From Clostridia bacterium (GTDB lineage: Bacteria > Bacillota > Clostridia > Oscillospirales > Acutalibacteraceae): a DNA stretch of 45,832 nucleotides. The stretch spans positions 1-45,832 of the forward strand of contig JAKSQF010000001.1 of NCBI GenBank assembly GCA_024404235.1. The letters are read 5' to 3'. Below the pieces are notes generated by a model, which ran no database searches, had not been told where the DNA came from, and saw nothing but the letters and a program-made list of their open reading frames with translations. How positions within the stretch are numbered: position 1 is the stretch's first letter; every line of letters starts with the position of its first letter. The position numbers were made by a program, and so were the translations under genes. This document shows, piece after piece, positions 7,009 through 42,668 of the stretch.

Positions 7009-7021
7009 AAACTTTTCCTCC

Positions 7022-12788: not shown

Positions 12789-15362
12789 TCATTCCCGGGT
12801 TTTCAATAATAGTGTTACAATGCGGTGGGCCGGAACATCCAGCGAAACCGCACCGCCGACGACCGGATAAGACGTTCCGGTCGGCTCTTCGGCCAAATTC
12901 AGTAATTGTGCTTCGACAAAGCGGTCGGAAAGCCGCAATACGGCGTGGCGTTCTTCGGTACCGGTGTTATAAACACGCAGTACAAGGCCGCTTCCCTTTT
13001 CCGCATTTTTAAAGGCGGTATTCCAAAGACCGTTTGTTTCCATTCGGCAAAGGCTGTATTCGGCAGAACCGTCACAGCACTGCGGATCGGTGATTTGCTT
13101 TGCAGGCATTGTACCGGCGGTATACTGCAGAGCCTGCATTTCGGCTGATTCATAATTCTCTGCCTTGCCGAAGAACAGAGCATATTCTGCCGTGTTGACA
13201 CGGTTTTTACACTGTGCATCGGGCGTTGGGAAGTAACCCCAATCCCCCAATTGATCAATACAGCGAAGCAACGTCACACAAAGGGTGTTACTGCCGTCCC
13301 GCAAAACTTCATACTCGTGCAGGCCGCGAGTCGCCACCAGCAGATGCGCATCGGCATCCTTCAAGGCGGCAAAGTTGAGCATGATCTGCTCGTTCGACGG
13401 GGCCGTCCATACAGAATCGGTCGCAATAGAACGGTGCAACGTATCGTATTGACCGCCGACCAGTACGGTTTCGGTTTTGATATCATTTTTGAAGAGGGCC
13501 CGAATGCGATGATTTTCAGCACCGTTTTCGATTTTGACGGCAAAATCAAGGCGGCGGGAGCCCTTGGTTAAGGTAACTTCGGTTTCGATTTCGACCGGAG
13601 TCGTTTCATCCGAAAAACGGATTTCAGAACGGTCAAAATATTTGGGCAGTTGCAACGTATGCCTGATAATAAAGGTTACCGCCGACGAAGTTGCACATTT
13701 GAGTTCTACGCCGGCAACAGCATTTTCGGTTGTAACAGCCGGACGGTCATAACGAATAAACTTGTATTCGTCTCCGATATCGGCCATATCCTCATACAAA
13801 TTGATGCCGCTGACAACACGACCGGTTTCAAGATCGGTCACGGTTAGGGAACCGTTGTTTTCAATATCAACGTGCAGATATTCGTTTTCAGCAGAACGAT
13901 CGGTATGCTTTAATGCCGAAGATGCATCGGTCGCATTTGTTGCATAATAAATCTTATACCCGCAGGCAGGTACCGCCTGCGCCGAGAAGGTGAAGGTGTA
14001 GCGGTCTACGTAAACGACCTTGCGGAAAGCGTCATCCGGCAGCGTATAGGTAAAGACGTTTTTTTCGACCTTTGCCGGTACGGCGACTACCGTACCCGCC
14101 TCATCCGTTAATGCACTGACGGTTTTGCCCGATTCCACGGGAACGTCGACCGTTACGGTCACCAAGTCGGTACGGTCATAAACCGAGGTGTTGTACACCG
14201 CTACGGGGATTCCCTTCGTACAATCGACCTTTAAGTGGCTTTCCAGTCTTTCGACGGCGCGCGCCGTAATACATCCGGCCGCCTTTAACACCTCGCCGAA
14301 GCGGGTTTCCATATCGCGGTGGACCGGATCGACACTGCAGCCGCAGATGGAATCGTGTGCGTGGTTTTTAAGCAGTTGTTTCCACGCATAGAAGAGATAA
14401 TCTTTATCGTAAATCCCGCCGTAAAGAGAGGCCATTGCGCTAAGCGGCTCGGCTTCGCGCTCTAATGCATTTTCGGCCAGACGGTTTAACTGCTTGAGAT
14501 AAATTCTGGCACTTGCCGTGCAGATCAGCAAACCCTTTCCGTTGGTGTGCTGACCGGCCAGTTCTTCCACAATAACGGGGTACTTGCTTGTGTCTTTTTT
14601 CACGATTTGCATATAGGTTTCCAAATCGCTTTGAATATATTGAACGGAAGGATCCAACTGATTGAAAGCAGCGATCGCTTCCGGCAGATTTCGTTGTAAA
14701 GGTTGATGATGCGGTCCATTCATACCGAGATAGTCGTGAATGGCGGATGCTTTTCTGAAATTACCGAGTAATTTTTCTGCCCTTGCCTGCACTGCCGTGC
14801 TTTCGACCGGCAATTCGGCGGCATTGTTATACCACGGTGCAAAGTGTGCGGCGACTACGCGGCTGCCATCCGGCGAGCCCCAAATCAGTTCGGAAATGGC
14901 GGGAACACCACGCCCGAAAACGGCACAGTCGATACCGAATCCGCAGAAAATCTGCGGCATTTGAGCAATATTGCCGAAGCTGTCCGGCAAATAACCGACC
15001 ATTTGCGGTTTTACGTTCATTTTTTCGGCGACCTGCAAACCGATAAGCATATTGCGTACGTTTGCTTCGTCGCTGATCAAGTATTCATCCTGTAATACAT
15101 ACCACGGGCCGACCTTGATGCGTCCGGTGTCGATCGCGTGCTTTAAGCGGTCAAAGTTATACGGTTTGATTTGCAGATAATCCTCTAAAACGACCATCTG
15201 TCCATCCAAATTGAAGGAACGGAATTCCTGCGAGGCTTCGGTTTCCTCCAAAATGGAATCAATCAGATCAATCAAACGGTAGCGGTGCTCTTCAAAGCTC
15301 ATATACCACTCACGGTCCCAATGGGAATGCGGTATGATATGTACAGTTTCCATATTAGGCAT
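12789..15362 (-). CDS. GH38 alpha-mannosidase (cytoplasmic)
   Basis: 857 aa. The N terminus VHIIPHSHWDREWYMSFEEHRYRL is the hallmark GH38 metal-binding motif. It has no signal peptide. AGGAGA lies upstream. Confidence 0.92.
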   Translation of the reverse strand: MPNMETVHIIPHSHWDREWYMSFEEHRYRLIDLIDSILEETEASQEFRSFNLDGQMVVLEDYLQIKPYNFDRLKHAIDTGRIKVGPWYVLQDEYLISDEANVRNMLIGLQVAEKMNVKPQMVGYLPDSFGNIAQMPQIFCGFGIDCAVFGRGVPAISELIWGSPDGSRVVAAHFAPWYNNAAELPVESTAVQARAEKLLGNFRKASAIHDYLGMNGPHHQPLQRNLPEAIAAFNQLDPSVQYIQSDLETYMQIVKKDTSKYPVIVEELAGQHTNGKGLLICTASARIYLKQLNRLAENALEREAEPLSAMASLYGGIYDKDYLFYAWKQLLKNHAHDSICGCSVDPVHRDMETRFGEVLKAAGCITARAVERLESHLKVDCTKGIPVAVYNTSVYDRTDLVTVTVDVPVESGKTVSALTDEAGTVVAVPAKVEKNVFTYTLPDDAFRKVVYVDRYTFTFSAQAVPACGYKIYYATNATDASSALKHTDRSAENEYLHVDIENNGSLTVTDLETGRVVSGINLYEDMADIGDEYKFIRYDRPAVTTENAVAGVELKCATSSAVTFIIRHTLQLPKYFDRSEIRFSDETTPVEIETEVTLTKGSRRLDFAVKIENGAENHRIRALFKNDIKTETVLVGGQYDTLHRSIATDSVWTAPSNEQIMLNFAALKDADAHLLVATRGLHEYEVLRDGSNTLCVTLLRCIDQLGDWGYFPTPDAQCKNRVNTAEYALFFGKAENYESAEMQALQYTAGTMPAKQITDPQCCDGSAEYSLCRMETNGLWNTAFKNAEKGSGLVLRVYNTGTEERHAVLRLSDRFVEAQLLNLAEEPTGTSYPVVGGAVSLDVPAHRIVTLLLKTRE

Positions 15363-15429: not shown

Positions 15430-16854
15430 TTATCTGCTTTCGTTTACAAGTTCATCCAAAAGCGTTTGGACGGTTTCCTTACCGGCGGAAATGATGGTTG
15501 CCGGATCGGTATTCGGGTCACGGGCGATCGGCTTAAAGATCGCGGTGATGGTATACATTTCAAAGTTACGGTCAATTCGGCTGTACATAAATACCGGATC
15601 GTATACGATGTTCGGAAGAATATCCTTTTCAAGAACTTCTGCCGACTCTTCGTCACGGTAGTAGGTCGAGGAAATTTCATCCTGCCAAATGGACAGTTCG
15701 CCGTAAGATGTACCTGCCATAGCTTCCAGAATCAAACCGGTTGCTTCGGGATTGTCGATGGACTTTGGTACGCATACGATCGGGGTGTTGTGGTCGATCG
15801 CACTGTAGTAATGATCAACGTCGGGGCCCATCGGAATCGGAACAAGACCGAAGTCATCGTTCATTTCACGCAAGGCCTGACCGCGCGTGGTCAAATTCAG
15901 GTAGAAGGTGACTTGACCGTTGATGAACATTTCGGTACAAAGCGAAGCATCGCCGCCACCGTAGTAGTAAGCACCCGGTGCGCCGAACATCTTCTTCATT
16001 TTGGTCAGGGTCGGAATAACGTTGGGGTCGGTCATACCGTAGGTTACGGTGCCTTCCTTGCTGATTTTAAGCATATCCAAACCATTTGCGAGGAAGAAAG
16101 CCGTCATACCGCCGTCCAAGCCGCCGGTAACACCGTAAATATCGCTGTTGTCAAACACGGCGTCAGAATTGACGTCCTTCATGGATTTAGCAACCATTGC
16201 CGAGAAGGTATCCCAGTTCCACTTGCCCTGAGCCATCAATTCATACGGATCGTCCAGATTGAGTTCTTCGATCAAACGCTTGTTGAAATAGACGCCGAAG
16301 CCGTGGGTGTAAGGATTGGCAAAAGCGGCGGAAGCGCCATAGCGTTCACCCGAGAACAGAACGGCAGTATCATCATAGATGTTCAGCCAATGATCCTGCT
16401 TAAAGTCGGTATTCGGCAATTTGGACATATCGTAGAGATAGTCGCCGGTAGCCAGCTTACCGTAGGTGAACAGGGTAACGTCCATGACGTCGGCAACCTT
16501 TTCGCCCGACATAATAGCCGGATACATTTCATCATAGAAGCTGGTCGGATCGTAGTATTCATATCTGATTTTGCAGTTGAATTTGTCTTCGATCGCCTTA
16601 TTGCGAGCCAGGATGGCATCGGAAAGTTCCGAAGCGCCGGCTTCCATTACCGGACGGTCATCGGTACCGTAGTAGCAGGCTTCGGCAATGACAAATTCAT
16701 AACCCTTTAAGTCCTTGTTCGGCAGTTTGTCAAGATAGGCAAAATCCGCATTGCCGCCCGCGGCTTTTTTGCCTTCGGAACCCTTACCGCAACCGGCAAA
16801 AGCACCCAGCACCATGACCACGCACAGTGCCATGCAAATCATTCTTTTTTTCAT
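15430..16854 (-). CDS. ABC sugar transporter substrate-binding lipoprotein
   Basis: 474 aa with a lipobox (VLGAFAG-C-GK), an AGGAGG RBS and family-1 solute-binding-protein-like composition. Confidence 0.9.
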   Translation of the reverse strand: MKKRMICMALCVVMVLGAFAGCGKGSEGKKAAGGNADFAYLDKLPNKDLKGYEFVIAEACYYGTDDRPVMEAGASELSDAILARNKAIEDKFNCKIRYEYYDPTSFYDEMYPAIMSGEKVADVMDVTLFTYGKLATGDYLYDMSKLPNTDFKQDHWLNIYDDTAVLFSGERYGASAAFANPYTHGFGVYFNKRLIEELNLDDPYELMAQGKWNWDTFSAMVAKSMKDVNSDAVFDNSDIYGVTGGLDGGMTAFFLANGLDMLKISKEGTVTYGMTDPNVIPTLTKMKKMFGAPGAYYYGGGDASLCTEMFINGQVTFYLNLTTRGQALREMNDDFGLVPIPMGPDVDHYYSAIDHNTPIVCVPKSIDNPEATGLILEAMAGTSYGELSIWQDEISSTYYRDEESAEVLEKDILPNIVYDPVFMYSRIDRNFEMYTITAIFKPIARDPNTDPATIISAGKETVQTLLDELVNESR

Positions 16855-16888
16855 AAGTATCCTCCTTATTTTTCCGAAACGGAAAAGT

Positions 16889-17839
16889 TTATCCTACGAT
16901 GCCGCTGCGTTCGATTCCCTGAATCAATTGACGCTGGAACACCAGATAGAATACAAATAACGGTGCGATGATCATAACAACCGCCGTGTTCTGCATTACC
17001 GAGGACATCATCGTTCCGTTGGAAATAGCCTCGGTCGAGATGGCGGTGACCTTATTGAGGATCATCGGCAAAACGGTCATACTGCGATTGAACAGACCGG
17101 AATAGAACGTATCGGTCCATTGCCACGCAAAGGAAAGCACGAAAATGGAAACCAGCATGGAACGTGCCATGGGGAACATAATGGAGAAGAAGGCTTTAAT
17201 GGGATTACAGCCGTCTACCCAAGCTGCCTCATTCAGTTCCTGCGGGACGCCCTTGAAAAACTGGCGTATTACGAAAATGTACAAGCCGTTTTTGAGGCCT
17301 AACGCCGTAAGTGAAAGTAAGATGGACGGCACAACCGTTTCCAGCGGTTTGATCGGCCCGATGCCGAACAGTGAAAGCAAACCGTAAATATCGAAATAAC
17401 GGAAACGGGTATACAGCGCCAAATACAACGTTTGCGGCGGAATGACGATGGTGAAAACCGCCATCAGGAAGAAAAACGTTTTTCCCCTAAACTTAAACTT
17501 GGCAAAACCGTAGCCGACCATACAGCAAACCAGCGTTTGCAAAATGGCGCAGGACAGCGAAATCAACAGGGAGTTGGTGAAGGCCTCCCAGTAGCCGCCG
17601 TACTTCAGCACACGGGTCACGTTATCCCAAGTAGGACTTTGCGGAATTAACCAAACGGTCGGGTTTTGCAGGTCGTCAAGGCTCATAAACATTACCGAAA
17701 TTCTTTTCAAAAACGGCAACAGAATGATGTAGGACAGACCGATCATCAAAATCAGGCGGAACAGCAGCCACGCCCAATTCTTCGGGTGGAATGCGAGCAC
17801 CCAATCCGGTGCATTGATTTTTCTCTTTTTCATACGCAT
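16889..17839 (-). CDS. Carbohydrate ABC transporter permease (MalG/LplC-like)
   Basis: 316 aa with multiple TM helices and a binding-protein-dependent transport signature region (..ELNEAAWVDGCNPIKAFFSIMFPMA..). The true start may be the third codon, ATG 17833, which lies 7 nt from GGGGG. Confidence 0.9.
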   Translation of the reverse strand: MRMKKRKINAPDWVLAFHPKNWAWLLFRLILMIGLSYIILLPFLKRISVMFMSLDDLQNPTVWLIPQSPTWDNVTRVLKYGGYWEAFTNSLLISLSCAILQTLVCCMVGYGFAKFKFRGKTFFFLMAVFTIVIPPQTLYLALYTRFRYFDIYGLLSLFGIGPIKPLETVVPSILLSLTALGLKNGLYIFVIRQFFKGVPQELNEAAWVDGCNPIKAFFSIMFPMARSMLVSIFVLSFAWQWTDTFYSGLFNRSMTVLPMILNKVTAISTEAISNGTMMSSVMQNTAVVMIIAPLFVFYLVFQRQLIQGIERSGIVG

Positions 17840-17845
17840 ACCCCC

Positions 17846-18781
17846 TTAATCACGTTCCTGGTAGAAGGTGAATCGGTAGCAAAGCAACGAAACAAGCCCC
17901 AGTATGATCAGCACAACACCAAAATACAGCCACGCCATTGCCGACGATCCGCTGTAGTTGTTTTTGGCAAAGGCCACGTCGTCGATCAAAAGCATGATCG
18001 GGTTATTGGAACGGGTAAATCCGTCGATGATGACGTAAATCGCATTGACGAAAATGATCGGGCTTAACAGCGGCACGGTGATCTTCCAAAAAGATTCCCA
18101 CGCATTGGCGCCCTCGACCCGAGCCGATTCGTACACGGCAGGTGAAATGCCCTGCAGGCCGGACAAAAACAGGATGATCGGAACACCGGCGTAATTGACG
18201 ACGCTGTAAATATTGTTGACCAGTGCCACCAAATATTCGACCATACCAGTCGGGATCATCATACGTTCAAGCATAGACTGGATATTGGAAATATCAAACC
18301 CGCCCGCGGTCACGGTGGAAACGCCGGTATCAATACCGGCCGATCCGTTGAGGCTTTCGAGCATGGCGTTCATCATATCGGCCTTTAATACCACGCCGGT
18401 AGCCATAATGACCGGCAGGAAGAAAATGGCACGGAAGATGCCGCGACCCGGCATTTGCTGATTGAGAACGACGGCGATGAACAAACTGAAAATCAAGATA
18501 GCGGGGCTTTGTACCAACAGCGTACCGATGAGCGACAGCGTGTTGCGCACAAAGTCGGGGTCCTTAAACAAGGCGTAGCGATAACTCTCCAAGCCGACAA
18601 ACTTTAAGGCGTAACCGTCCTGCCCGACAGACAACTGGTTAAAGCTGAAACGGAACGAGTTGAAAATGATCGGGAAATACAGAAGCACTAATCCGATCAC
18701 AAAGGGGGAAATAAAAAACCAGCCGTAGCGTCCGTTTTTCCGGATCAAAGAAGTCTTTTTCTTTTCCGCTTTTCGGATCAT
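17846..18781 (-). CDS. Carbohydrate ABC transporter permease (MalF/LplB-like)
   Basis: 311 aa with 6 predicted TM segments and an EAA-like loop (..YESARVEGANAWESFWKITVPLL..). Its ATG overlaps the upstream TGA (ATGA, 18778-18781). Confidence 0.9.
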   Translation of the reverse strand: MIRKAEKKKTSLIRKNGRYGWFFISPFVIGLVLLYFPIIFNSFRFSFNQLSVGQDGYALKFVGLESYRYALFKDPDFVRNTLSLIGTLLVQSPAILIFSLFIAVVLNQQMPGRGIFRAIFFLPVIMATGVVLKADMMNAMLESLNGSAGIDTGVSTVTAGGFDISNIQSMLERMMIPTGMVEYLVALVNNIYSVVNYAGVPIILFLSGLQGISPAVYESARVEGANAWESFWKITVPLLSPIIFVNAIYVIIDGFTRSNNPIMLLIDDVAFAKNNYSGSSAMAWLYFGVVLIILGLVSLLCYRFTFYQERD

Positions 18782-21393
18782 TGTACTGCACTCCCCCCCG
18801 CTTTTACTCGGTAATATCCGCCTGCGGGAACCGTGATTCCGTCGGCAGTATAATCGGTTGAATTATAGTTTACATAGATAACGTCACCGGTGGAATAAGT
18901 GACGGCGGAAACCCCTTCGGTCAAAACCTTGTAATCGGTCATGGTGGCGCTCTTCAAATCACCGATGGCTTCATCCACCTGCTTGTAAGCCGAAACGATC
19001 GGCTTTTCCCACGTGTTATAATCCACGGAATAATAATCACTGAAAGCCGTGGATTTCAACACCTTGGCATTGCGGTAAGCGATTTCAAAATACAGATCCG
19101 AGCCGGTTTCGATGGCATTCAAAACAGCGTTTTGATAATTGCCCGAAAGGTTGACTGCACCGGCAGAATAATCCACACGGCCGTGCAAGATCATTTGCAG
19201 GAACGGAACCGCATAATCGGCATCCGGATAACCGCTTGCCACCGACGGAACGTCCAGCAGACGGGAAACGTACGGATAGCAATAGGCGTTTGCACCGGCG
19301 ACCATCAGATCATTCTTTTTATCGGCGCGGGAAAGGATCTCGCAAATATAACGTTTGGATTCGCTTCGGTTTAACCCGTTGCTCTTGCTCTTATCGCTGT
19401 TGAGCGAGGTGCCGAAGCTGCCGAGTGACAAACCGTTTGTTTTCAAAGCGGTATATTTCTTTTCAAAACCGCTATACGAGGCGAGCATGACACGCGGATT
19501 GACGGCATACATAAACTTATCCGGATCGGTAAGGCCCGAGCTGAAAAGTGTTTTGGTATATCCGCTGTAAGTCTTATTCAGCATTCGGCAGGTATCTGCC
19601 TTAGCGGAAAAGTTGACTGCACCCTTGGTCGTATCGACGTAGGTCAGTTCGTTTTCAAAGAAGCGCGAATCGCCCTTTGATTTGAGTTGTTCGGTCAGCT
19701 GTGCCGCCCCCGACTTGCCGCCGATTTTACCGCGGACCGACGACGAAGCGTTGGACACGCGGTTTAACCCGTCCGAAGACCAACCGAGGTAGCGAACGTC
19801 CATCGAAGAAACGCCCTGCTTCTGCAATTTACCAACGGCTTCAAGTGCATCGTCAAAGGTCGTCAGTGCGACCTGCTTTTCAACCGGCACAAACAGGAAA
19901 CTGTCGGTGTGCTTGACGCTGCCGAATAATCCTACCGTGAGATTGGTATTCGTTTTATTTAACGGCTTCAGTTGCAGGCGATCACTGTAATACTCCGCCA
20001 TTTTTCCGTAACCGGAATCGGCCTCCAAAGCCTTATAGCAAACGCGGAAATTACCGTCGAATACGTGCTTATCCGCCAACGTCCAAGAATACTGCGTGTT
20101 GGTATCCTTGTATTCAAAGCTGTCATAATCCGTGTAACGGAAGCTGACGCCGGCATGGGCGTATCCGCTGGAAACACCGCCGGTATTAGCCAGAATATCA
20201 GCCACGGCATCTCCCCCGTCGATCACAGCAAAGAGGGTCTTCTTCTCCGCCTTAACACCGAACACCGGAACCGAAGCCGTCATCAGGTTTTCGTAACCGG
20301 CATTAAAGTTCAGCGAACGGTCGTAACCGTAGACAGGTACGGAAAGATCATTGCCCAGCTTACTGCCGGTGCGGTTAAAGCCCAAAACAGCACCGCATCC
20401 GTCGGGATAAAGAATATAGCCGTCTTCCTTACAATCGGCAGCGGCCAGATATTCCAGCGTGCCGATGTTTAACAGTGTAAAATATTTTTCATCGTAATGG
20501 ATCAGCGAGGACGGAACCGTGACGACCAATTCACCGTCAATCAGCTGATAGCAAACCGAAATTTCAAAACGGGGCGAAGCCTTTTCGACCACGCTTGCGC
20601 CGACAGCCTCAAGATCCTTATCCATATCATCGAGCGTGTAGCCGGCATCCTTGAAATAGCCTTCCAACTCGTTCATTTCACGGTCGGTGATCTTTTTCAG
20701 TACGTAAATCGGTTCTTTGTCAACAATCGGGAAACGGTCACGAATCATTTCCAACTGAGATTCCGACGTTTTTTCGGGATCGTACAGCTTATAAAATGCC
20801 TTTAGCCGACGGGGTGCACGGCCGTCCAGTTGCTCGACTAAATCATTGAATCGCTGTTGCGGAAGAGCGCCCGGTAACAGACGGCGTTGTTCGGCACGAC
20901 CGAGTATCATATTGACCTGAACACCGTTTTTCAACGGCTCGGCAGTATATTGACCCTTAATGACACACTCGTCAAAGCTGTAGATGTGATTGACCTTTTG
21001 TGCGCTGTCTAAGTAGGTCAAATGCAGTTGCGAAGCGATGCGCTGCTTTTGGGTTTGCACGGAACGGTTATCCTCCGCCAAATTCCACGGTGTTGAAAAC
21101 CAAGTACCGTTTTTGGTGACCAGCGCGATATCCGCCGTACTGCTGTCAAACCACAGCTCATTCCCCTGCTCAGTAGCGATCAGTTCCATGGCCGCCAAGC
21201 GTTCCGACTCACTGCCGAAAGAAGGGATTTGTTTCACCGGCGTTTTTAACTTCAACGGTTTGCCGGTTACGGCCGGTGCTTCTTCCTTTTGCCAAGTCAA
21301 AGCTTCCGCATGCGGTTTACGACCGATCAGAAATACGGATGCAACGATGGCAACAACTAAAAGAACAACAATTATTGATCGTAATCTTTTCAT
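18778..21393 (-). CDS. N-terminally membrane-anchored extracytoplasmic protein of unknown function (DUF5696-like by recollection)
   Basis: 871 aa with a single N-terminal TM helix (RSIIVVLLVVAIVASVFLIG) and a large ectodomain. I recognised no catalytic family. The conserved-looking segments VRYLGWSSDGLN, LSLGSFGTSLNSD and VPFLQMILHGRVDYS hint at a TIM-barrel-like fold. Confidence 0.85.
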   Translation of the reverse strand: MKRLRSIIVVLLVVAIVASVFLIGRKPHAEALTWQKEEAPAVTGKPLKLKTPVKQIPSFGSESERLAAMELIATEQGNELWFDSSTADIALVTKNGTWFSTPWNLAEDNRSVQTQKQRIASQLHLTYLDSAQKVNHIYSFDECVIKGQYTAEPLKNGVQVNMILGRAEQRRLLPGALPQQRFNDLVEQLDGRAPRRLKAFYKLYDPEKTSESQLEMIRDRFPIVDKEPIYVLKKITDREMNELEGYFKDAGYTLDDMDKDLEAVGASVVEKASPRFEISVCYQLIDGELVVTVPSSLIHYDEKYFTLLNIGTLEYLAAADCKEDGYILYPDGCGAVLGFNRTGSKLGNDLSVPVYGYDRSLNFNAGYENLMTASVPVFGVKAEKKTLFAVIDGGDAVADILANTGGVSSGYAHAGVSFRYTDYDSFEYKDTNTQYSWTLADKHVFDGNFRVCYKALEADSGYGKMAEYYSDRLQLKPLNKTNTNLTVGLFGSVKHTDSFLFVPVEKQVALTTFDDALEAVGKLQKQGVSSMDVRYLGWSSDGLNRVSNASSSVRGKIGGKSGAAQLTEQLKSKGDSRFFENELTYVDTTKGAVNFSAKADTCRMLNKTYSGYTKTLFSSGLTDPDKFMYAVNPRVMLASYSGFEKKYTALKTNGLSLGSFGTSLNSDKSKSNGLNRSESKRYICEILSRADKKNDLMVAGANAYCYPYVSRLLDVPSVASGYPDADYAVPFLQMILHGRVDYSAGAVNLSGNYQNAVLNAIETGSDLYFEIAYRNAKVLKSTAFSDYYSVDYNTWEKPIVSAYKQVDEAIGDLKSATMTDYKVLTEGVSAVTYSTGDVIYVNYNSTDYTADGITVPAGGYYRVKAGGSAVQ

Positions 21394-21403
21394 ATTGCAC
21401 CCG

Positions 21404-23569
21404 CTACATTCTGAACGTGATTTCGTTATAGATATTCTTGAGCATTGAACCCATCTGACCGATCAGGTTGACGAACAGCAGTCCCAAGAAGACGATGATC
21501 AGCATACCGACAACGGTGAGTATCACGGCAATTACATTCTTGCCTAACTGGTAATCGTGCGTGGAAAGAACAGAGCAGAACAGCAGGAAGCCTGTCCACA
21601 GATAACCGACGGTAAAGAAGAAGTTGACGAACATCAACTCGTTTGCCGTAACGAAATTACTGAGGATGGTTGCCGGAACAGTGAAGAACACCAGCGGCAC
21701 TAAAGCATAGCAGGTAGCTACGTAAATATCCTTCAAGCCGCCTTCGCCGTACATCAAACTGGTCAAGCACCAGTTGGCGATGCACCAAACCGCCACCACA
21801 CCGATGATAACCATCAGGTTGGCAAAAATATTGGTGTCAACATTTTGGCGGCCGGTATAGATATAACCCATTCCGACGGTACGGAACAGCAGCGAAACTG
21901 CCGCAAGTGCCAAAATGACGGTTGCCCCGCGTACGCCACCGCGTTTTGAACGTTTCAGTTCCCAATAGCCGTCAAACGGGTGGAAAATAACGTAGAAGGC
22001 AAACATAATTTCCTGACGGAGCGGGCGTTTACCCGTTACCGTAGAAGGAACGGCGCTGTTGAACTTTTTGGCGAATTTAAAGAATCTTGAAATTAAATAG
22101 CAAAGGAGAACTGCCAACACAGGCACCAGCAAAATATAATTGCCGAGCTTTTCACGGCGGTATTCGGAATAGGCCTCCGAATAATCCTCGACGTCGTTGG
22201 CAAGCTCGAAATAACCCATCGCTTCCTTATATTTGCCCTGCCGACGAAGTGCCGTGCCGATTCCGATATTGGCTAAATCGAAATTGGCGTTTTCAAGCAA
22301 AATCTTCTTATAAACGCCCACGAGCTGTTCGTACTCACGGTCGGCCGATAACTGAATGGCATTCAACACCAGAGCACCGTAGTTGGTCTTTTCAAAAACT
22401 GTAATACTGCCGGCCGCGGCATCCAATGCGTACATATTCATATCGGTATCGTATTCGATGGCGCTGAGCTGACGGAAAAGACCGAACTGATAACCCGTAC
22501 CGCCGTAGGCATACAGCAGGTTACCGTTTTCATCATAGGTAAAGATCTTACCGCGCTTTTGGTCGGCCAATGAATAAACACCGTTATACCCGACCGCCGC
22601 ATCCATAATACTGGAAGGGCCGTAGAAAATATCGGTATTCGTGGCGTTGCCGCCGGTAGCCATGGAGATTTCAACGTCACCGGCCGGCGGGAATGCACCG
22701 TTACGGATCAGCACGTCTTCTCCGGCGGAATTCAGCTTTTTGATCATTGCAAAGCGGTTTTCCGTGCTGCGGCTTTGAATGGTTTGAATAACGGCATTGA
22801 CGTCGGAGTAGGTCGAAGTAACGTACAAAAATCCTTTTTCGTCAATGGCGATATTGTTGTAGTTGGTAGGAACATAGCTTAACGTACGTTTTTTCTGTTC
22901 CTCGGTCATAAAGCGACGCCAGATGCGGTCTGCGACCGAAACGGTAACCTTTTGCGCACCGATGAAGGTGGAAAATTCGCCGTCCGGATTCAGTGCAACA
23001 ACACCGTAGGTATTACCGACCGAAACAATATAAATACGGCCCGCTTTATCAACCGAAAGCTTTGTCGGAATGTAGGAAAAATCGTGCGGCAGCAAACCGG
23101 ACACCGGTCGCTCGACTACCTGCACGCAGGTCAAATCCCGATCAAAAACGTAAATCTTCAAGCCGGTGGAGTCCGCCACGTACAGCTTGCCGTCTTCAGT
23201 GACAAAAACACCCGTCGGCTTCGTTAAGGCGTATTCTTTTCCTTCAAATTGAAATGAAGAAATGGCCTGTGCAGAGGAACGGTCCGCAGAAGTGACCACC
23301 ACTCGAGCGTTATCCGTATCGGCAATATAGATCCTGCCGTCCTTGTCCACACACAGATCCTGCGGATTTGCAAGCTTGCCGATGCCGAGGTTAGCTCCGT
23401 CAATTCGTTTTTCCGGAACGTAGGCATGCGGCGATTCAACCGACTCACCCTCATAATTATAAGAATAGGTCGAATAAGGGACATTATTATCCGCTGACAC
23501 GGAAAGCGATGCTGAAAATACCGTCAGCAAAGCCAGTACGAACATTAAAATCCGCTTAGCGTATTTCAC
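21404..23569 (-). CDS. Fusion protein: secreted 6-bladed NHL-repeat beta-propeller plus TPR-like segment plus C-terminal Yip1-type polytopic membrane domain
   Basis: 721 aa with a GTG start and AGGAAGGGA 5 nt upstream, and a signal peptide. NHL-like blades include PQDLCVDKDGRIYIADTDNARVVV, PTGVFVTEDGKLYVADSTGLKIYVFD, PTKLSVDKAGRIYIVS and three more. The TPR-like segment is ..GTALRRQGKYKEAMGYFELA... About 6 TM helices follow, with a Yip1-like entry motif (FYVIFHPFDGYWELKRS). The stop is TAG. Confidence 0.88.
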   Translation of the reverse strand: MKYAKRILMFVLALLTVFSASLSVSADNNVPYSTYSYNYEGESVESPHAYVPEKRIDGANLGIGKLANPQDLCVDKDGRIYIADTDNARVVVTSADRSSAQAISSFQFEGKEYALTKPTGVFVTEDGKLYVADSTGLKIYVFDRDLTCVQVVERPVSGLLPHDFSYIPTKLSVDKAGRIYIVSVGNTYGVVALNPDGEFSTFIGAQKVTVSVADRIWRRFMTEEQKKRTLSYVPTNYNNIAIDEKGFLYVTSTYSDVNAVIQTIQSRSTENRFAMIKKLNSAGEDVLIRNGAFPPAGDVEISMATGGNATNTDIFYGPSSIMDAAVGYNGVYSLADQKRGKIFTYDENGNLLYAYGGTGYQFGLFRQLSAIEYDTDMNMYALDAAAGSITVFEKTNYGALVLNAIQLSADREYEQLVGVYKKILLENANFDLANIGIGTALRRQGKYKEAMGYFELANDVEDYSEAYSEYRREKLGNYILLVPVLAVLLCYLISRFFKFAKKFNSAVPSTVTGKRPLRQEIMFAFYVIFHPFDGYWELKRSKRGGVRGATVILALAAVSLLFRTVGMGYIYTGRQNVDTNIFANLMVIIGVVAVWCIANWCLTSLMYGEGGLKDIYVATCYALVPLVFFTVPATILSNFVTANELMFVNFFFTVGYLWTGFLLFCSVLSTHDYQLGKNVIAVILTVVGMLIIVFLGLLFVNLIGQMGSMLKNIYNEITFRM

Positions 23570-23596
23570 GTTATTCCCTTCCTTCTGTTTATAAAA

Positions 23597-24463
23597 TCAA
23601 TCTTTCATACCCGAGGTTGCAAGTGTTTCAACAACCTGCGACTGAGTCAGTACAAAAATCAAAATCGGAACGATCATCATCAGTACCGTAGCCGCCGCCG
23701 AAGCGCCGACGCGGGTAACGCCGCCCGAAAGAATTTGATGCAATGCATAGTTCAGCGGTTTTAAATCTTCACGGTAAATGTAGTTTGTATCTGCCAAGTT
23801 CCACAGTCCTTGGAACGAGAAGATGACCAACGTAAGCCATGCAGGCTTGACCATCGGCATTACGATGCGGAAGAATATCAAAAATTCGCCGGCACCGTCA
23901 ATTCGTGCCGCTTCCAGAATACCGTCGGGTATCATCTGCTCAATAAACTGCTTCATTAGGTACAGTCCCAAGGATGACCCGAACGCGGGAACGACCAATG
24001 CCGCCAGCGTATCGACCCAGTGCAACCGTGCCATAATGATAAAGTTCGGAATGGCAGTAACGGTGGCATTGAACATCAACGACAAAACAACAATATTAAA
24101 CAGGAAATTCTTTCCGCGGAAATCGAATTTACAAAGAGCGTATGCACACATCGAGGCCAGCACAACGTGTCCGCCGGTGCCCACGATGGTGACAAACAGC
24201 GTATTGAAAATGTAACGCGAGAACGGAACGGTCGAATCGTCCAAAATGCGGAACAGCTCTTTGAAGTTTTTGAACGTAGGATTATGAACGAAGAAGCGCG
24301 GCGGATAAACCCATAATTCATCGGCCGGTTTCAGCGAGGTGCAGATGGCGTAAATCATCGGCAAAGCCATAAACAAGCCTACCGTAAACAGGAAAACGCC
24401 GATGCAGATATCCCCGCCCAAAGAACGGTTCAAACGGTGTGTGTGTAATTTGATTTTAGCCAT
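23597..24463 (-). CDS. Carbohydrate ABC transporter permease (MalG/LplC-like)
   Basis: 288 aa with 6 TM segments and an EAA loop (..ILEAARIDGAGEFLIFFRIVMPMV..). Its ATG directly abuts the TAA of the upstream gene (24461-24466). Confidence 0.92.
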   Translation of the reverse strand: MAKIKLHTHRLNRSLGGDICIGVFLFTVGLFMALPMIYAICTSLKPADELWVYPPRFFVHNPTFKNFKELFRILDDSTVPFSRYIFNTLFVTIVGTGGHVVLASMCAYALCKFDFRGKNFLFNIVVLSLMFNATVTAIPNFIIMARLHWVDTLAALVVPAFGSSLGLYLMKQFIEQMIPDGILEAARIDGAGEFLIFFRIVMPMVKPAWLTLVIFSFQGLWNLADTNYIYREDLKPLNYALHQILSGGVTRVGASAAATVLMMIVPILIFVLTQSQVVETLATSGMKD

Positions 24464-25360
24464 TTACTCACCCACCTTCGAAATAATTCTGCGAATAACA
24501 AAGTTACTGATAACCATAATGATAAACAGCACCGTGGCGATTGCAGAAGCATAACCCAATTCGTAACGGGCAGTACCGTAATCCTGCAGGTGGTTTACCA
24601 TGGTATGCGCGGCATAGTTGGTGGACGGGTTACCGGCCAACTGCGTAACAATGGCACCCACGCCGAAGGAGGCGGTAATGCTTAATACCGCACTTAACAG
24701 CATTTGCGGCCGCATCAGCGGTAAGGTAACGTACCAAAGCTCCTGCCAGCGGTTGGTGATGCCGTCGATCGAGGCGGCTTCATAATAAGTTTTATCCACA
24801 CCCTGAAAACCTGCAATAAAGGTCAAGAAGCTGGTACCAAGGCTGCTCCACAAAGCAACGACGGCAATGATCGGCAGAATGTAATCTTCGTTTCTCAGCC
24901 AAATGATCGGTGCGGAAATTAAGCCGCTGCGCATCAAGAAGCCGTTTAAGTAACCGTAAGCGTCACCGCTGAAAACAGCCTGCCAAACGAGGTACATATT
25001 GCCCGAAATGGACGGAGCATAGAAAATAAGGGTTACGATCGCGCGGGCCGTCGGCCGAAGCTCGTTGATAAACCATGCAAACAGCAGGCAGAGAATATAA
25101 CCGAGCGGGCCGGTGATCAAGGCCAGAATAAAGGTGTTCCCGATAGACTTGATGAAGATTTCATCCTGCAGAAACAGGCGTATATAGTTCTGCATTCCGA
25201 TGAATTTCGGAATTTGGAACATATTGAAATCGGTGAAGCTGAGGAAAATAGACATCAGAACCGGGAGAACCGTAAACGTGAAGAAAATGCAAAAGTACGG
25301 CAGTATAAAGAACCACACAACGCCCTTTGACTGGCGCTTGTATGCTTTTCCCAATTTCAT
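24464..25360 (-). CDS. Carbohydrate ABC transporter permease (MalF/LplB-like)
   Basis: 298 aa with 6 TM segments and an EAA loop (..YYEAASIDGITNRWQELWYVTLPLM..). AGGAGGGG RBS lies upstream. Confidence 0.92.
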   Translation of the reverse strand: MKLGKAYKRQSKGVVWFFILPYFCIFFTFTVLPVLMSIFLSFTDFNMFQIPKFIGMQNYIRLFLQDEIFIKSIGNTFILALITGPLGYILCLLFAWFINELRPTARAIVTLIFYAPSISGNMYLVWQAVFSGDAYGYLNGFLMRSGLISAPIIWLRNEDYILPIIAVVALWSSLGTSFLTFIAGFQGVDKTYYEAASIDGITNRWQELWYVTLPLMRPQMLLSAVLSITASFGVGAIVTQLAGNPSTNYAAHTMVNHLQDYGTARYELGYASAIATVLFIIMVISNFVIRRIISKVGE

Positions 25361-25373
25361 TCTATCCCCTCCT

Positions 25374-28250
25374 TTATTCAGTCGGCAAACCGAATTCGGC
25401 GCGCTTGCGGGTAATTTCGCTGTTCAGCATTTCAACCTGCTTTAAGATGGCCGCATCCGGCTTTTTGCCGTTGGCATAAACCGAAGCGAAAGCAAAGTCG
25501 ATGGCACGGGCCGTGTAGTAGCCGCCCGGAATTTCCGGTGTGCCCTGCAGGTGCTGTGACTGATCCTTCAAAGCCGCATATTCGGCATCGGTCCAGGACA
25601 TTCCTTCAATGGCGCCGAGGTTTGCGGTGGCGTGCTTTGCGGCAACGCCCAAAACCGATTCGACCTCGATTGCATAACGGCTTTGAGTTTCGGTCGAGGT
25701 GACCCACTTCATAAACTCCCAAGCCTTATCCTTTTGCTTGCAGGATTTCAACATCATAATGCCCGAGGAAGCGGCCGGTGCGGTGTAGTTGATCGAGCCG
25801 TCCGCCTGCTTTGTTCCGGGAACGGGAGCCATTGCCCAAAGTCCCTTAATTTCGGAAGCAAAGATGGTCAACTGATTATACATCGTGTATTCCGTAATGC
25901 CGATAGGCATTTCACCGCTTCTGAAACGGTTGGCAAAGTCGTAATCGACCGGCAGACGGTACAGGGTAAACAGTTCGGACATCCGTTCAAAGCAGCGGAT
26001 GTTCAAATCCTGCGACATCTGCGATTTTGTAAATTTATCGTTATACAGCGAGCCGCCGTTTTGATAAAGGAACAGCTCCAAGCCGTACAGATTCATATTG
26101 GAAACGACCGACGTTTTGGCATTGATTGGATAACCGAAGTCCAGATTCTGCTGTTGCAGCTTCCAAATGACCTCATAGAATTCATCCCACGTTTTCGGCG
26201 GTTGCAGGCCGAGTTCTTCAAAGATGTCCGTACGGTAGAACATCATTAAGAAGGTCATCGTTTCGGGCAGCGCATAGGTTGCCCCGTTAAACGAGAACGG
26301 CGTCAGCGCAGCGCTGTGGAAACGGGTAGTGGTTTCCTCGAAGCCGGGCATATCTTTCAGATCAACAGCCGCGCCGCGGATGGCAAAGTCGATCGGCATA
26401 TGGGAGGTGACGTTCATGGCGACGTCCGGTCCGGTGCCTGCCAGTACCGACGGCAGCAACGCGGTCGGTGTAACCAACTGAACGTTGACCTTGATACCCG
26501 TTTGCGGGGTGAAGTACTGTTCGGTCAGCTTCTGCATGATCTGGCATTGCTCACGTCCGTTTGACATCCAAACCGTGATCACGTTTCCTTTTTTGTAGTC
26601 ATCTTCCGTGATATCACCCGCAAAGGACTGATAATCCTGGAAGAAGCTGAGGAAGAAACGCTTGATCTTAAACCAAAGGTTTTTGAAGAAGGAATCACTC
26701 GATTCGGGTGCTTTTTCATCGGCCGGGCTGATATACAGCTGATCCAAATCCAACGGTTGAACCATAATCGACTGGATCCAAGTACCCAATGAAGAGAGGT
26801 TATCTTTATAGGTCGAGAACAGCTCCGAAATGGATTCGGGGTTTTCGCACATCTTATCCAACACAATGGTCAGCTTACCGATCGAATTGGTAAAATCACC
26901 CTTGGAGTTGGTCATTTCGTTTAACGCATCAATCGTTTTATTCAGTTCCTTACTTTGCTTTGCAAAGTCTTCCAAAACTTCCGGAATCAGCTCGTCATAA
27001 CCGTAGTCACGGTAGATATCCGGTGTCGGGCCCGTGATGATCAAAATACGGCGGTAGTCGGCGTTCAAAGCAGACAGTGCATCCTGTATGCGGGCGATCA
27101 CCGGTGCCATATCGCCGAGGACGACCTCTAACTTGAGGGTATGTTTGCCTTCCTCTAAGAAGAAGCGGAACGGTTCTTCGGCACCGAGGGCCGCATTTTT
27201 CCAAGTGTCGGTATAATCGAAGCGGATCCACTGTGCTTCCTCGAACGGGCAAACATCATCAATGTAAAGCTTTCGGGAGGTAAATCCGCCGTCGTAATAA
27301 TCCTGCTTGTAGCGGGTGGAGATTTTATAATATCCGGTCTTTTTGACGTCGATATCCCAAGAGAGCCATTGACCGGTTTGACCCCATTTGTCACCGCTGA
27401 TCACATTCAGCACCGTTTTAACCGGATGCTGCGGTGAAAGCGAAGCGGAGGATTTATCCCCCGTGGGGTAAACGGTGAAGGTCGATTTTTCGGTGACCTT
27501 TTCGGCCTCGACGGTGATGGTTTCACAATCGACCGAATCACCCGGATGGGCTGCAAGGTAATCTTTATAAGTCGGGACGGTGATTTCCGGATAGAAGCGC
27601 AGGCCGATGACCTCTAACTTTTCACGGTCGGCCCGCAGGGATACGGTATGCTCCCCTTTAGTCAGATGAACCGAAAGGTTGCCGGGTACGTAGTTTTCGG
27701 CATCGTGCAACGTATAGGTCATCACACGCGGGGCCTCCAACTGCTCCGGCGTGACTTCGTCACCTTTGGCGTTGGTTTGAACAGCGTCGTCTTTATAAAC
27801 GCGGGAGAAGTTGAGGTACTGTGCCTGATCGTACGGAACTTTGCCGTCAATCAGCAAGGTACGCTCGATCATACCGCCCTTGGAAACCGTCGGGAAATAT
27901 GAAACGTCCAACTGATAAAAGCCTTCGCTTTGGGCCGTGAATTTCCAGGTTGCCGTGCTGTCCCCTTCGGTCAGCAGGCCACCGTTTTCACCCTTGGAAA
28001 CCGTTCCGGTAGTTGAGGCAGTATCAAGACCGGCAATATTGATTTCACCTTCGGCAACGGCAGGCTTTTCGATTTCCGCCCGATATTTTGCATAAGCGGA
28101 CTCCAAAACCAGCGTGCCGGGTGCCGTTTTTTTCTGATCCTTCGATGCCCTTCCGGCCGAAACAACCGACTGCAAAATAAAGATCAGCACCAAACATATT
28201 GCCGTTATTATACAAATTAATTTTTTCTTTTGTTCAAAAAAACGTGCCAC
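25374..28250 (-). CDS. Very large extracellular solute-binding protein: signal anchor, two CBM6/35-like beta-sandwich regions, a helical region and a C-terminal family-1 sugar SBP domain
   Basis: The ORF track start, ATG 28313, sits inside the -10 box of the promoter, so I prefer GTG 28250..28248, with GGGGTGG 4 nt upstream. The protein begins VARFFEQKKKLICIITAICLVLIFILQSVVSA. The SBP fold starts about 26591 (GNVITVWMSNGREQCQIMQKLTEQYF...). The exact start remains uncertain. Confidence 0.85.
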   Translation of the reverse strand: MARFFEQKKKLICIITAICLVLIFILQSVVSAGRASKDQKKTAPGTLVLESAYAKYRAEIEKPAVAEGEINIAGLDTASTTGTVSKGENGGLLTEGDSTATWKFTAQSEGFYQLDVSYFPTVSKGGMIERTLLIDGKVPYDQAQYLNFSRVYKDDAVQTNAKGDEVTPEQLEAPRVMTYTLHDAENYVPGNLSVHLTKGEHTVSLRADREKLEVIGLRFYPEITVPTYKDYLAAHPGDSVDCETITVEAEKVTEKSTFTVYPTGDKSSASLSPQHPVKTVLNVISGDKWGQTGQWLSWDIDVKKTGYYKISTRYKQDYYDGGFTSRKLYIDDVCPFEEAQWIRFDYTDTWKNAALGAEEPFRFFLEEGKHTLKLEVVLGDMAPVIARIQDALSALNADYRRILIITGPTPDIYRDYGYDELIPEVLEDFAKQSKELNKTIDALNEMTNSKGDFTNSIGKLTIVLDKMCENPESISELFSTYKDNLSSLGTWIQSIMVQPLDLDQLYISPADEKAPESSDSFFKNLWFKIKRFFLSFFQDYQSFAGDITEDDYKKGNVITVWMSNGREQCQIMQKLTEQYFTPQTGIKVNVQLVTPTALLPSVLAGTGPDVAMNVTSHMPIDFAIRGAAVDLKDMPGFEETTTRFHSAALTPFSFNGATYALPETMTFLMMFYRTDIFEELGLQPPKTWDEFYEVIWKLQQQNLDFGYPINAKTSVVSNMNLYGLELFLYQNGGSLYNDKFTKSQMSQDLNIRCFERMSELFTLYRLPVDYDFANRFRSGEMPIGITEYTMYNQLTIFASEIKGLWAMAPVPGTKQADGSINYTAPAASSGIMMLKSCKQKDKAWEFMKWVTSTETQSRYAIEVESVLGVAAKHATANLGAIEGMSWTDAEYAALKDQSQHLQGTPEIPGGYYTARAIDFAFASVYANGKKPDAAILKQVEMLNSEITRKRAEFGLPTE

Positions 28251-28280
28251 AAAACCACCCCTGCGACAATTTGTTGTATT

Positions 28281-28290
28281 TTTTGTATTA
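28281..28290 (+). promoter_or_regulatory. Candidate operator box TTTTGTATTA in the 5' leader of operon A
   Basis: It matches 9 of 10 positions of the ATTTGTATTA box. It lies between the predicted TSS (~28305) and the start codon (28250) of the minus-strand operon. Confidence 0.5.
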
Positions 28291-28311
28291 AATGATAATT
28301 CTACCAATCGC

Positions 28312-28340
28312 ATTATATCATATATTTTTCAACAAAGCAA
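28312..28340 (-). promoter_or_regulatory. Sigma-A-type promoter of operon A: TTGCTT - 17 nt - TGaTATAAT (extended -10)
   Basis: The minus strand reads TTGCTT (28340..28335), a 17-nt spacer ending in TGA, then TATAAT (28317..28312). Confidence 0.65.
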
Positions 28341-28385
28341 TAATTTTTTTGCATTTATTCGTCATTTTTTTTACACAATAAATAT

Positions 28386-28418
28386 ATTTGTATTAAATTC
28401 CAAAAGATTTGTATTACA
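28386..28418 (+). promoter_or_regulatory. Two candidate operator boxes ATTTGTATTA (28386-28395 and 28407-28416), 21 nt apart
   Basis: These are exact 10-mer repeats located between the two divergent promoters. The second extends to ATTTGTATTACATTT, an imperfect 7-1-7 inverted repeat. Confidence 0.6.
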
Positions 28419-28427
28419 TTTTACATC

Positions 28428-28456
28428 TTGACAAATTTGTCGAAAAGTTGTATCAT
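28428..28456 (+). promoter_or_regulatory. Sigma-A-type promoter of the regulator gene: TTGACA - 17 nt - TATCAT
   Basis: TTGACA is at 28428-28433 and TATCAT at 28451-28456. The spacer contains a partial box, AATTTGTCG, which would allow autoregulation. Confidence 0.6.
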
Positions 28457-28512
28457 ATTTTTTGAAATTGATATTATGAAAAGGAGGGTTTTCGGCATTT
28501 TGCCGCACAATT

Positions 28513-29583: not shown

Positions 29584-29603
29584 TTCAAAGCATATTAAGA
29601 CAA

Positions 29604-29640
29604 CAATCCCCGAACCGAAATCGGTTCGGGGATTGTTTTA
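29604..29640. terminator. Bidirectional intrinsic terminator between convergent genes
   Basis: caatccccgaaccga-aa-tcggttcggggattg forms a 15-bp perfect stem (29604-29635). TTTTA follows on the + strand. It lies between the stop of the regulator (29583) and the stop of the giant gene (29648). Confidence 0.85.
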
Positions 29641-42468: not shown

Positions 42469-42484
42469 ATCATCATCTCGCTTG

Positions 42485-42530
42485 ATTTGTATTATAATTT
42501 GTATTACAAATGTATATAACGATACAAATT
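42485..42530 (+). promoter_or_regulatory. Operator cluster in the operon B leader: ATTTGTATTA (42485-42494), the perfect 7-1-7 palindrome ATTTGTA-T-TACAAAT (42497-42511) and an inverted half-site ATACAAAT (42522-42529)
   Basis: I read these directly from the sequence. All lie between the predicted minus-strand TSS (~42535) and ATG 42468. Confidence 0.65.
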
Positions 42531-42541
42531 TGGTCAAATAC

Positions 42542-42570
42542 ACTATAGCATAATGCTAATTAAAAGTCAA
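42542..42570 (-). promoter_or_regulatory. Sigma-A-type promoter of operon B: TTGACT - 17 nt - TATAGT
   Basis: The minus strand reads TTGACT (42570..42565), the 17-nt spacer tttaattagcattatgc, then TATAGT (42547..42542). A second, weaker candidate (TTGACC at 42537..42532, 17 nt, TACATT) follows. Confidence 0.65.
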
Positions 42571-42607: not shown

Positions 42608-42636
42608 TTGATTTTTTCAAAAAAATATGATATCAT
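42608..42636 (+). promoter_or_regulatory. Sigma-A-type promoter of the oxidoreductase gene: TTGATT - 17 nt - TGaTATCAT (extended -10)
   Basis: TTGATT is at 42608-42613 and TATCAT at 42631-42636, preceded by TGA. The ORF-track ATG at 42627 lies inside this promoter. Confidence 0.6.
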
Positions 42637-42644
42637 TATTAAAA

Positions 42645-42654
42645 ATTTGTATTA
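42645..42654 (+). promoter_or_regulatory. Candidate operator box ATTTGTATTA at about +1 of the oxidoreductase promoter
   Basis: This is an exact copy of the 10-mer seen at 28386, 28407, 42485 and 42497. Confidence 0.55.
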
Positions 42655-42668
42655 AAACGGTGATCAAA

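Follow-up and report, generated by a model that had tools for sequence, protein, structure and literature searches.

Gram-positive polysaccharide utilization loci (gpPULs; PMC5320581), the YknWXYZ transporter of Bacillus subtilis, in which the Yip1 protein YknW modulates assembly of the MacB-type exporter YknXYZ (PMC4887032), and the Sus-like utilisomes of Bacteroidota are the closest described systems to a gene cassette that we analysed in a 45,832-nucleotide stretch of DNA (hereafter the window) from a Clostridia bacterium of the order Oscillospirales (contig JAKSQF010000001.1). The cassette codes for a giant solute-binding protein (SBPg), a first permease pair (P1 and P2), a membrane protein that joins an NHL propeller, TPR-like helices and a Yip1 domain (YIP), an ectoprotein with a DUF5696 domain (DUF5696, or DUF in gene orders) and a second permease pair (P3 and P4); in the window these genes are followed by one for a lipoprotein solute-binding protein (SBPs). 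Like gpPULs, the cassette combines a regulator and a solute-binding protein with permease pairs of the MalF/MalG type that carry EAA loops, a glycosidase-like protein at the surface and exo-glycosidases in the cytoplasm, and in neither case does the locus have an ATPase gene. It differs from them in its fixed set of seven genes, with two permease pairs, usually one solute-binding protein and an obligatory Yip1 protein; in a solute-binding protein of ~950–1300 aa that is anchored by a transmembrane helix and fused to modules resembling carbohydrate-binding modules (CBMs); and in a core conserved as a block within variable flanks. The co-localization of transporter, glycan enzymes and regulator that characterizes gpPULs was found in the window but not at most other cassettes. 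Similarly to the cassette, Bacteroidota utilisomes bring a glycan-binding protein and an endo-enzyme, both at the cell surface, together with a transporter, and use GH76, GH125 and GH38 enzymes for α-mannan; the cassette, however, has no outer membrane or SusC/D to work with and has ABC importers and a putative Yip1 scaffold instead, which makes the utilisome an analogue and not a homologue. Glycan foraging by gut Firmicutes is far less understood than the Sus paradigm of Bacteroidota. The logic of the cassette is that of a Gram-positive polysaccharide utilization locus, and its composition is undescribed: a preliminary description of the window, made from the sequence alone, had held that the two middle genes (YIP and DUF5696) lack a characterized function, and indeed neither protein fell into a characterized family and no description of a DUF5696/Yip1/ABC-permease arrangement was found in the literature. 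We put at about one half (0.5) the probability that the cassette is a widespread, uncharacterized Firmicute module which captures glycans at the cell surface, cleaves them there and imports the pieces.

The evidence that carries this reading is the conservation of the cassette. Wherever the contig permitted, the core order SBPg-P1-P2-YIP-DUF-P3-P4 was constant in the ~170 loci sampled from either middle gene. On the YIP side, a scan of one genome per GTDB species with an alignment of the Yip1 fusion gave at least 561 confirmed stretches, the best 80 of which were analysed; the full seven-gene order was present in 59 of these 80 loci, and the other 21 were sub-strings of that order. On the DUF5696 side, metagenome contigs were scanned with a DUF5696 alignment (199 relatives), and 80 loci together with three further ones (L088–L090) were analysed; 37 of these 83 had the full order and the remainder were cut by contig ends. 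Each incomplete locus of both samples ended no more than 576 nt from a contig end. In both samples the best match of each permease was the permease at the same cassette position, SBPg stood first in all complete loci, P4 was the last core gene, and DUF5696 belonged to a seven-gene cassette at every locus examined. The order was the same in a close relative (L001), in a 43%-identical relative (L002/L003), and in L004, in which DUF5696 is only 24% identical to that of the window and the downstream genes are different. L088–L090, which carry three further distant DUF5696 proteins, also showed it, so that the order is kept down to 24% DUF5696 identity, as did Paenibacillus castaneae, one Ruminococcaceae genome and another metagenome contig. 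The cassette ranges over Clostridia and Paenibacillus/Bacillus, and its carriers include gut, rumen, termite and bioreactor Clostridia as well as Paenibacillus. Because the identical order was seen in 170 independent loci, the arrangement is far beyond chance. The single break in the pattern was contig L096 (1–4348), where a YIP gene without its first ~155 codons is preceded by fragments of atpA, atpG and atpD; either a chimeric contig or decay of the copy is the probable cause.

The genes around the cassette behaved differently from the core. Flanking genes were not conserved, the largest flank family being present in 16 loci, and the reshuffled flanks rule them out as conserved partners. Frequent neighbours were nifS, nifU, mnmA, RNase H, a ROK protein, alaS and PFOR. 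Housekeeping flanks with neither a carbohydrate-active enzyme (CAZyme) nor a regulator were seen in many Oscillospirales-type genomes (for example, L006, L010, L015, L017, L023, L036, L045, L047 and L067). The preliminary description had pictured two complete importers bracketing two genes. The conserved unit is instead a core of seven genes with one giant solute-binding protein and two permease pairs, and the lipoprotein SBPs lies outside it. The proposed synteny of the Yip1/DUF5696 pair with ABC permeases, on the other hand, held in 170 loci. Features of the window are listed in Table 1.

Table 1. Cassette genes and adjoining features of the window, in the order of cassette transcription after the regulator.
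Feature	Coordinates	Strand	Evidence
Regulator, GntR-type helix-turn-helix with LacI-type periplasmic-binding-protein sensor domain	28513..29583	+	Pfam GntR 6.1e-16, Peripla_BP_3 1.7e-29
Divergent promoter region, AT-rich, between cassette and regulator	28251..28512	.	GC down to 0.41; best sigma-70-like matches, both strands
SBPg, giant membrane-anchored solute-binding protein, ~958 aa	25374..28250	-	SBP_bac_1 8.9e-30; first in all complete loci
P1, MalF/UgpA-like transmembrane domain (TMD), first pair	24464..25360	-	BPD_transp_1 7.5e-13; positional orthologues in all loci
P2, MalG/UgpE-like TMD, first pair	23597..24463	-	BPD_transp_1 1.7e-12; NCBIfam UgpE-like 8.5e-25, below cut-off
YIP, 721 aa, signal peptide, NHL propeller, TPR-like helices and six transmembrane helices	21404..23569	-	Pfam NHL 5.3e-14, Yip1 9.2e-13
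DUF5696 ectoprotein, 871 aa, N-terminal transmembrane anchor and GH129-like three-domain body	18778..21393	-	Pfam 4.9e-146
P3, first TMD of second pair	17846..18781	-	BPD_transp_1 3.6e-7; start overlaps DUF5696 stop (ATGA)
P4, second TMD of second pair	16889..17839	-	BPD_transp_1 1.5e-9
SBPs, accessory lipoprotein solute-binding protein, 474 aa, signal peptide ending ...FAGC	15430..16854	-	SBP_bac_1 1e-11
GH38 α-mannosidase	12789..15362	-	Five GH38 Pfam domains; same place in L001, L002/L003
GH42-like protein	10711..12777	-	Glyco_hydro_42M 1.9e-11 (trimerization domain), Glyco_hydro_42 8.7e-6 (weak catalytic domain); conserved in L001, L002

The transport components are those of type I (CUT1-like) importers, that is, TMD pairs with an EAA loop and a cognate solute-binding protein. 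PF00528 (BPD_transp_1) was matched above the gathering score by all four permeases, and in each of P1–P4 the E and G residues of the EAA loop were without exception among 65 sequences; with this loop intact, both permease pairs are expected to engage an ATPase. Neither the scanned large open reading frames (ORFs) of the window nor the interior of any cassette yielded an ABC ATPase. Firmicute CUT1 sugar importers usually lack an ATPase gene of their own and depend on a shared MsmX/MsmK-type ATPase encoded elsewhere, so the absence of this gene, which the preliminary description had pointed out, stands as an observation but does not distinguish the cassette. SBPg consists of an N-terminal transmembrane helix (33–51), two CBM35-like β-sandwich regions, a helical region and a C-terminal SBP_bac_1 domain, which Pfam confines to residues 593–877 of the 979-aa ORF. 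Its N-terminal half was conserved family-wide (occupancy 0.97) and gave weak recurrent matches to CBM_35 (8 of 30 members) and Golvesin_C (12 of 30), which fits putative glycan-binding modules fused to a solute-binding protein. The length of SBPg across cassettes varied from ~940 to 1340 aa. It was the only solute-binding protein present throughout the family: relatives of SBPs occurred within 10 kb of the cassette, upstream or downstream of the core, in only 20 of the ~170 loci, and SBPs is thus accessory and not part of the core.

This distribution bears on the simplest alternative, in which two ordinary, independent CUT1 importers have been co-inherited with a surface glycosidase and an unrelated membrane protein, YIP plays no part in uptake and no complex is formed. 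All parts of the cassette but YIP are standard elements of Gram-positive glycan loci, each permease pair of the window has its own solute-binding protein, and the order of an operon can persist through descent alone. We nevertheless regard this explanation as improbable, since in ~150 of the 170 loci no solute-binding protein dedicated to the second permease pair lies nearby, and since order and content are fixed from Paenibacillus to Oscillospirales at 24–45% protein identity with wholly reshuffled flanks. In addition, conservation is higher for YIP, the supposed bystander, than for the enzyme (median identities to the respective window proteins of 40% for YIP and 26% for DUF5696), and YIP co-varies with P3 and P4. 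The last point comes from a comparison of pairwise-identity vectors over 65 cassettes (Pearson r, with 300 bootstraps over taxa), in which the core fell into two blocks, {YIP, DUF, P3, P4} with a mean r of 0.91 and {SBPg, P1, P2} with 0.85, the cross-block mean being 0.78. Within the first block r was 0.95 for YIP-DUF, 0.91 for both YIP-P3 and YIP-P4, 0.88 for DUF-P3 and 0.90 for DUF-P4; within the second it was 0.89 for P1-P2, 0.81 for SBPg-P1 and 0.84 for SBPg-P2; cross-block pairs ranged from 0.69 to 0.85. The within-block excess was reversed in 0 of 300 bootstraps for the first block and in 11 of 300 for the second. This observation hints that YIP and DUF5696 may work with the second permease pair.

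We found that DUF5696 covered nearly all of its Pfam family, with PF18952 matched over profile positions 3–612 of 612 (488 bits against a cut-off of 25.6). Hydropathy gave a single transmembrane helix at residues 6–24 and hence an outward-facing body. In the AlphaFold2 (AF2) model, built with 24 sequences (pLDDT 88, pTM 0.84), this body comprises a β-sandwich, a TIM barrel and a second β-sandwich. When the model was compared with the Protein Data Bank (PDB) by Foldseek, glycoside hydrolase family GH129 came first, represented by the Zobellia 3,6-anhydro-D-galactosidase ZgGH129 (5opq, 1e-28) and the B. bifidum α-N-acetylgalactosaminidase NagBb (5wzq, 8e-23), followed by GH101, GH31 and GH36; the top entries 5opq, 8rzk and 5wzq had E values of 1e-28 to 1e-22 and a probability of 1.00. 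These four families are retaining α-glycosidases in which a TIM barrel is flanked by β-sandwiches. DUF5696 shares its three-domain layout with GH129 and GH101, the fold match extending over the whole chain (TM-score 0.53 by query length and 0.68–0.70 by target length), but it differs from GH129 by the N-terminal membrane anchor, by an identity of only ~10–13% and by having no mapped pair of nucleophile and acid/base. The single sequence had no match among PDB sequences; a profile of 24 DUF5696 sequences did match NagBb (1.5e-6) and ZgGH129 (4.9e-6), over partial stretches only. Besides, fragments 74–97% identical to NagBb have precomputed Pfam matches to both the GH101 and the DUF5696 models. 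Taken from profile and model, DUF5696 appears to be a remote homologue of GH129/GH101, with a similarity short of GH129 family membership, and it is probably an enzyme of a putative GH129-like kind. The idea in the preliminary description that the two middle genes are parts of, or accessories to, the uptake machinery has strong backing from synteny, but because of this homology by fold and profile a role of DUF5696 as an enzyme at the surface is more likely than one as a subunit of the transporter.

Candidate catalytic residues of DUF5696 were followed over the 65 cassettes. The acids D358 and E762 were invariant, and D331 was present in 64 of 65. Judged by position, the nucleophile is likely to be D667, which follows barrel strand 4, but only 57 of 65 sequences have Asp there. 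Candidates on strand β6 also varied, position 714 being N or D and position 718 D, E or another residue (D714 and V718 in the window protein). Transfer of catalytic residues from GH129 through a search seeded with the NagBb fragments returned only short fragments, and a profile of the C-terminal half of the DUF5696 barrel matched no glycoside hydrolase structure, giving only spurious matches to interferon-gamma and encapsulin. The length of DUF5696 ranged from 738 to ~1990 aa across cassettes (L012, L016, L031, L054, L062 and L084), and Oscillospirales-type copies carry large additional regions.

The second middle protein, YIP, matched Yip1 (PF04893) at residues 526–695 with 48.9 bits against a cut-off of 28.6. 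Its AF2 model (64 sequences, pLDDT 86, pTM 0.71) shows, after the signal peptide, a six-bladed propeller (~30–395), five TPR-like helices (396–475), a transmembrane helix (481–506), two short helices with a near-invariant HPFDGxW motif, and a Yip1 domain with five transmembrane helices (546–720); hydropathy and AF2 agreed on six transmembrane helices in all. In an all-against-library search, 1,495 YIP-related clusters were obtained at 50% identity (E<=1e-30). The 150 best were, but for a few fragments and longer variants, near full-length (~690–790 aa). Sequence matches of the propeller in the PDB were TRIM71, Pizza and PknD, and every Foldseek match was a binding-type NHL propeller (for example, TRIM71, Brat or the sensor domain of PknD; target-normalized TM-score up to 0.82), none being an enzyme and none belonging to the Yip1 transmembrane domain. 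YknW is the only functional precedent that we found for a bacterial Yip1 protein. It is alike in being a Yip1-domain membrane protein which is encoded with an ABC transporter and needed by it (PMC4887032). In contrast to YIP, YknW has no propeller or TPR ectodomain, and YknYZ, which has its own ATPase and a membrane-fusion protein, is an exporter of the MacB type, whereas the cassette transporters are type I importers; no FtsX, membrane-fusion protein or ABC_tran domain was found beside YIP, whose neighbours are BPD_transp_1 permeases and solute-binding proteins. The precedent, already drawn in the preliminary description, holds as far as a Yip1 protein going with an ABC transporter, but the Yip1 domain is all that the two systems have in common.

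The propeller resembles NHL domains that bind ligands, the sensor domain of PknD among them, and this raises another explanation, in which YIP is a sensor or gate: the propeller would bind extracellular glycan or a loaded solute-binding protein, and predicted cytoplasmic loops would switch the importer or importers. The most conserved motifs of YIP (HPFDGxW, NWCLTxL.DGEGS and THDY.LGKN) are indeed predicted to lie on the cytoplasmic side, but this topology comes only from hydropathy and the AF2 monomer, and YIP has no recognizable output domain. We consider a sensor or gate very unlikely as the explanation of the cassette; a role of this kind would also be compatible with YIP as a scaffold and would not exclude it.

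With regard to the substrate, neighbouring enzymes were informative at some loci. GH76 endo-α-1,6-mannanases, some of them with CBM6, flanked cassettes in four different taxa (L005, L037, L039 and L042), GH125 was found beside the cassette in L005 and L037, GH38 in the window, L001 and L002, and a NAGPA phosphodiester glycosidase in L052 and L151. GH76, GH125 and GH38 are reportedly partner enzymes in the yeast α-mannan utilization loci of B. thetaiotaomicron described by Cuskin and colleagues in 2015. Since the flanking CAZymes, where present, are α-mannan enzymes, the most likely substrate of the window copy is a glycan rich in α-mannosides, such as fungal or yeast α-mannan or high-mannose glycans. 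The GH38 and GH42-like proteins of the window have no transmembrane, signal or hydrophobic segment and for this reason are probably cytoplasmic.

The same neighbourhoods allow a reading in which the cassette serves the cell's own envelope, trimming or recycling an α-linked cell-wall or capsular glycopolymer and re-importing the fragments, as a housekeeping and not a foraging function. Most cassettes lie amid housekeeping genes and have neither CAZymes nor sugar regulators as neighbours, a setting that is unusual for a glycan-utilization module; the family is very widespread in certain Clostridial lineages (at least 561 stretches; 1,495 clusters), and the local regulator is not conserved. Yet the informative neighbours are enzymes for foreign, fungal-type α-mannan (GH76, GH125 and GH38) and CBM6 proteins, the window copy lies within a large CAZyme/dockerin locus under a sugar-type regulator, and CBM-like modules such as those on SBPg are typical of foraging systems. 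We therefore give little credence to a role in envelope turnover.

Capture, cleavage and import at the surface, the reading that we prefer, could proceed as follows. The operon would be transcribed from the AT-rich region 28251–28512 under control of the divergent GntR/periplasmic-binding-protein regulator. As judged by hydropathy, SBPg, YIP, DUF5696 and SBPs face the outside of the cell, since each has an N-terminal transmembrane anchor or a signal peptide. SBPg, tethered through its N-terminal helix, may hold a polymer or large oligosaccharide with its CBM35-like modules, while its C-terminal domain would load oligosaccharide onto P1P2. DUF5696, likewise tethered by its N-terminal helix and GH129-like, would cut an α-linked sugar or oligosaccharide outside the cell. 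YIP, with its extracellular propeller, TPR-like helices and six transmembrane helices, might act as a scaffold or assembly factor and keep DUF5696 beside P3P4, which would take up a second product, in the window with the assistance of SBPs. A shared ATPase of the MsmX/MsmK type, encoded elsewhere, would power both permease pairs, and the cytoplasmic GH38 and GH42-like enzymes would complete the breakdown.

Several observations weigh against this reading. Recombination between the operon halves could yield the same two co-variation blocks as the putative physical association of YIP, DUF5696 and P3P4. In DUF5696 a catalytic pair could not be assigned, D667 and the β6 candidates being variable. 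The likeness of the YIP propeller to binding and sensor propellers gives no specific indication of its partner. Because most cassettes, set among genes such as nifS, nifU, mnmA, RNase H, alaS and PFOR, have no CAZyme nearby, both the foraging role and the α-mannan assignment rest on a minority of loci. The window itself also contains proteins with no obvious link to mannan, namely the GH42-like protein and those with a pectate-lyase fold.

A stronger form of the proposal is that the seven genes make one stable cell-surface machine, the Gram-positive equivalent of a Bacteroidota utilisome, in which YIP docks the GH129-like enzyme onto P3P4 and so replaces a free binding protein. We regard this as rather unlikely; if true, it would be a new mode of substrate delivery for a type I ABC importer and the first role in nutrient uptake assigned to a bacterial Yip1 protein. 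Short of that, the cassette gives DUF5696 a testable hypothesis (a GH129-like α-glycosidase) and bacterial Yip1 proteins a testable role, and it may reveal a Firmicute route for α-mannan. Culturable Paenibacillus carriers, for example P. castaneae, make genetics feasible.

The sequence of the locus was also read directly for gene boundaries. ORF calling on the window gave eight co-directional minus-strand ORFs from 28250 to 15430, with intergenic gaps, in transcription order, of 13, 0, 27, 10, −4, 6 and 34 nt. The ATGA overlap of the DUF5696 stop and the P3 start (18781–18778) reads GTACAATGATCC, and the TAA/ATG abutment of the P1 stop and the P2 start (24466–24461) reads GAGTAAATGGCT; tight packing, overlap and abutment were all as the preliminary description had them. 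Pfam models agreed with the identity it gave to each of the eight proteins and recovered the SBP_bac_1, BPD_transp_1, NHL, Yip1 and DUF5696 domains it had named; TPR was called by Pfam in YIP homologues but not in the window protein, where helices 396–475 of the model take its place. NCBIfam named none of the eight above its cut-offs. The longest SBPg ORF begins at an ATG at 28313, which falls within a promoter-like TATGATATAAT box, whereas the candidate start at 28250 is a GTG preceded by a AGGGGTGG ribosome-binding site. For these reasons SBPg probably starts at the GTG at 28250, the upper limit that had been proposed for the operon; homologues of SBPg are also ~957 aa long.

The divergent regulator has a close relative in L001 only and weak relatives in L005, L037 and L007, and it is ruled out as a conserved partner of the cassette, being local context only. 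No Rfam match was found in the window, which rules out an RNA leader of this kind as a shared element. Inside the operon, the frequency of hairpins that could serve as intrinsic terminators was not above that of shuffled sequence.

Beyond the cassette, the entire 45-kb window looks like a single glycan-degradation island. Two large Pect-lyase_RHGA_epim proteins, a second, larger GH38 and a PF12831 FAD-dependent oxidoreductase are encoded at 7022–10678 (−), 36718–39522 (−), 39532–42543 (−) and 42627–43982 (+). Like the GH38 and GH42-like proteins, a pectate-lyase-fold protein is encoded co-directionally downstream of the cassette. Type I dockerins end two window proteins, one of 647 aa (2942–4885, −) and one of 545 aa with DUF285/BspA-LRR (44069–45706, −), and imply that this organism anchors proteins at its surface in the manner of a cellulosome; in L151 (15311–18658), a NAGPA phosphodiester glycosidase next to the cassette likewise bears a dockerin. 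ORFs 51–1676 (+), 541 aa, and 4981–7074 (−), 697 aa, had no Pfam match. A 2072-aa protein (29648–35866, −), whose sole domain match is SASA (sialate O-acetylesterase-like), has in L001 a counterpart of 2259 aa, at the same place next to the cassette. A perfect 16-bp hairpin with 9 GC pairs and a T-rich tail (29602–29637) separates the regulator gene from this convergent gene and is the only convincing intrinsic terminator near the locus.

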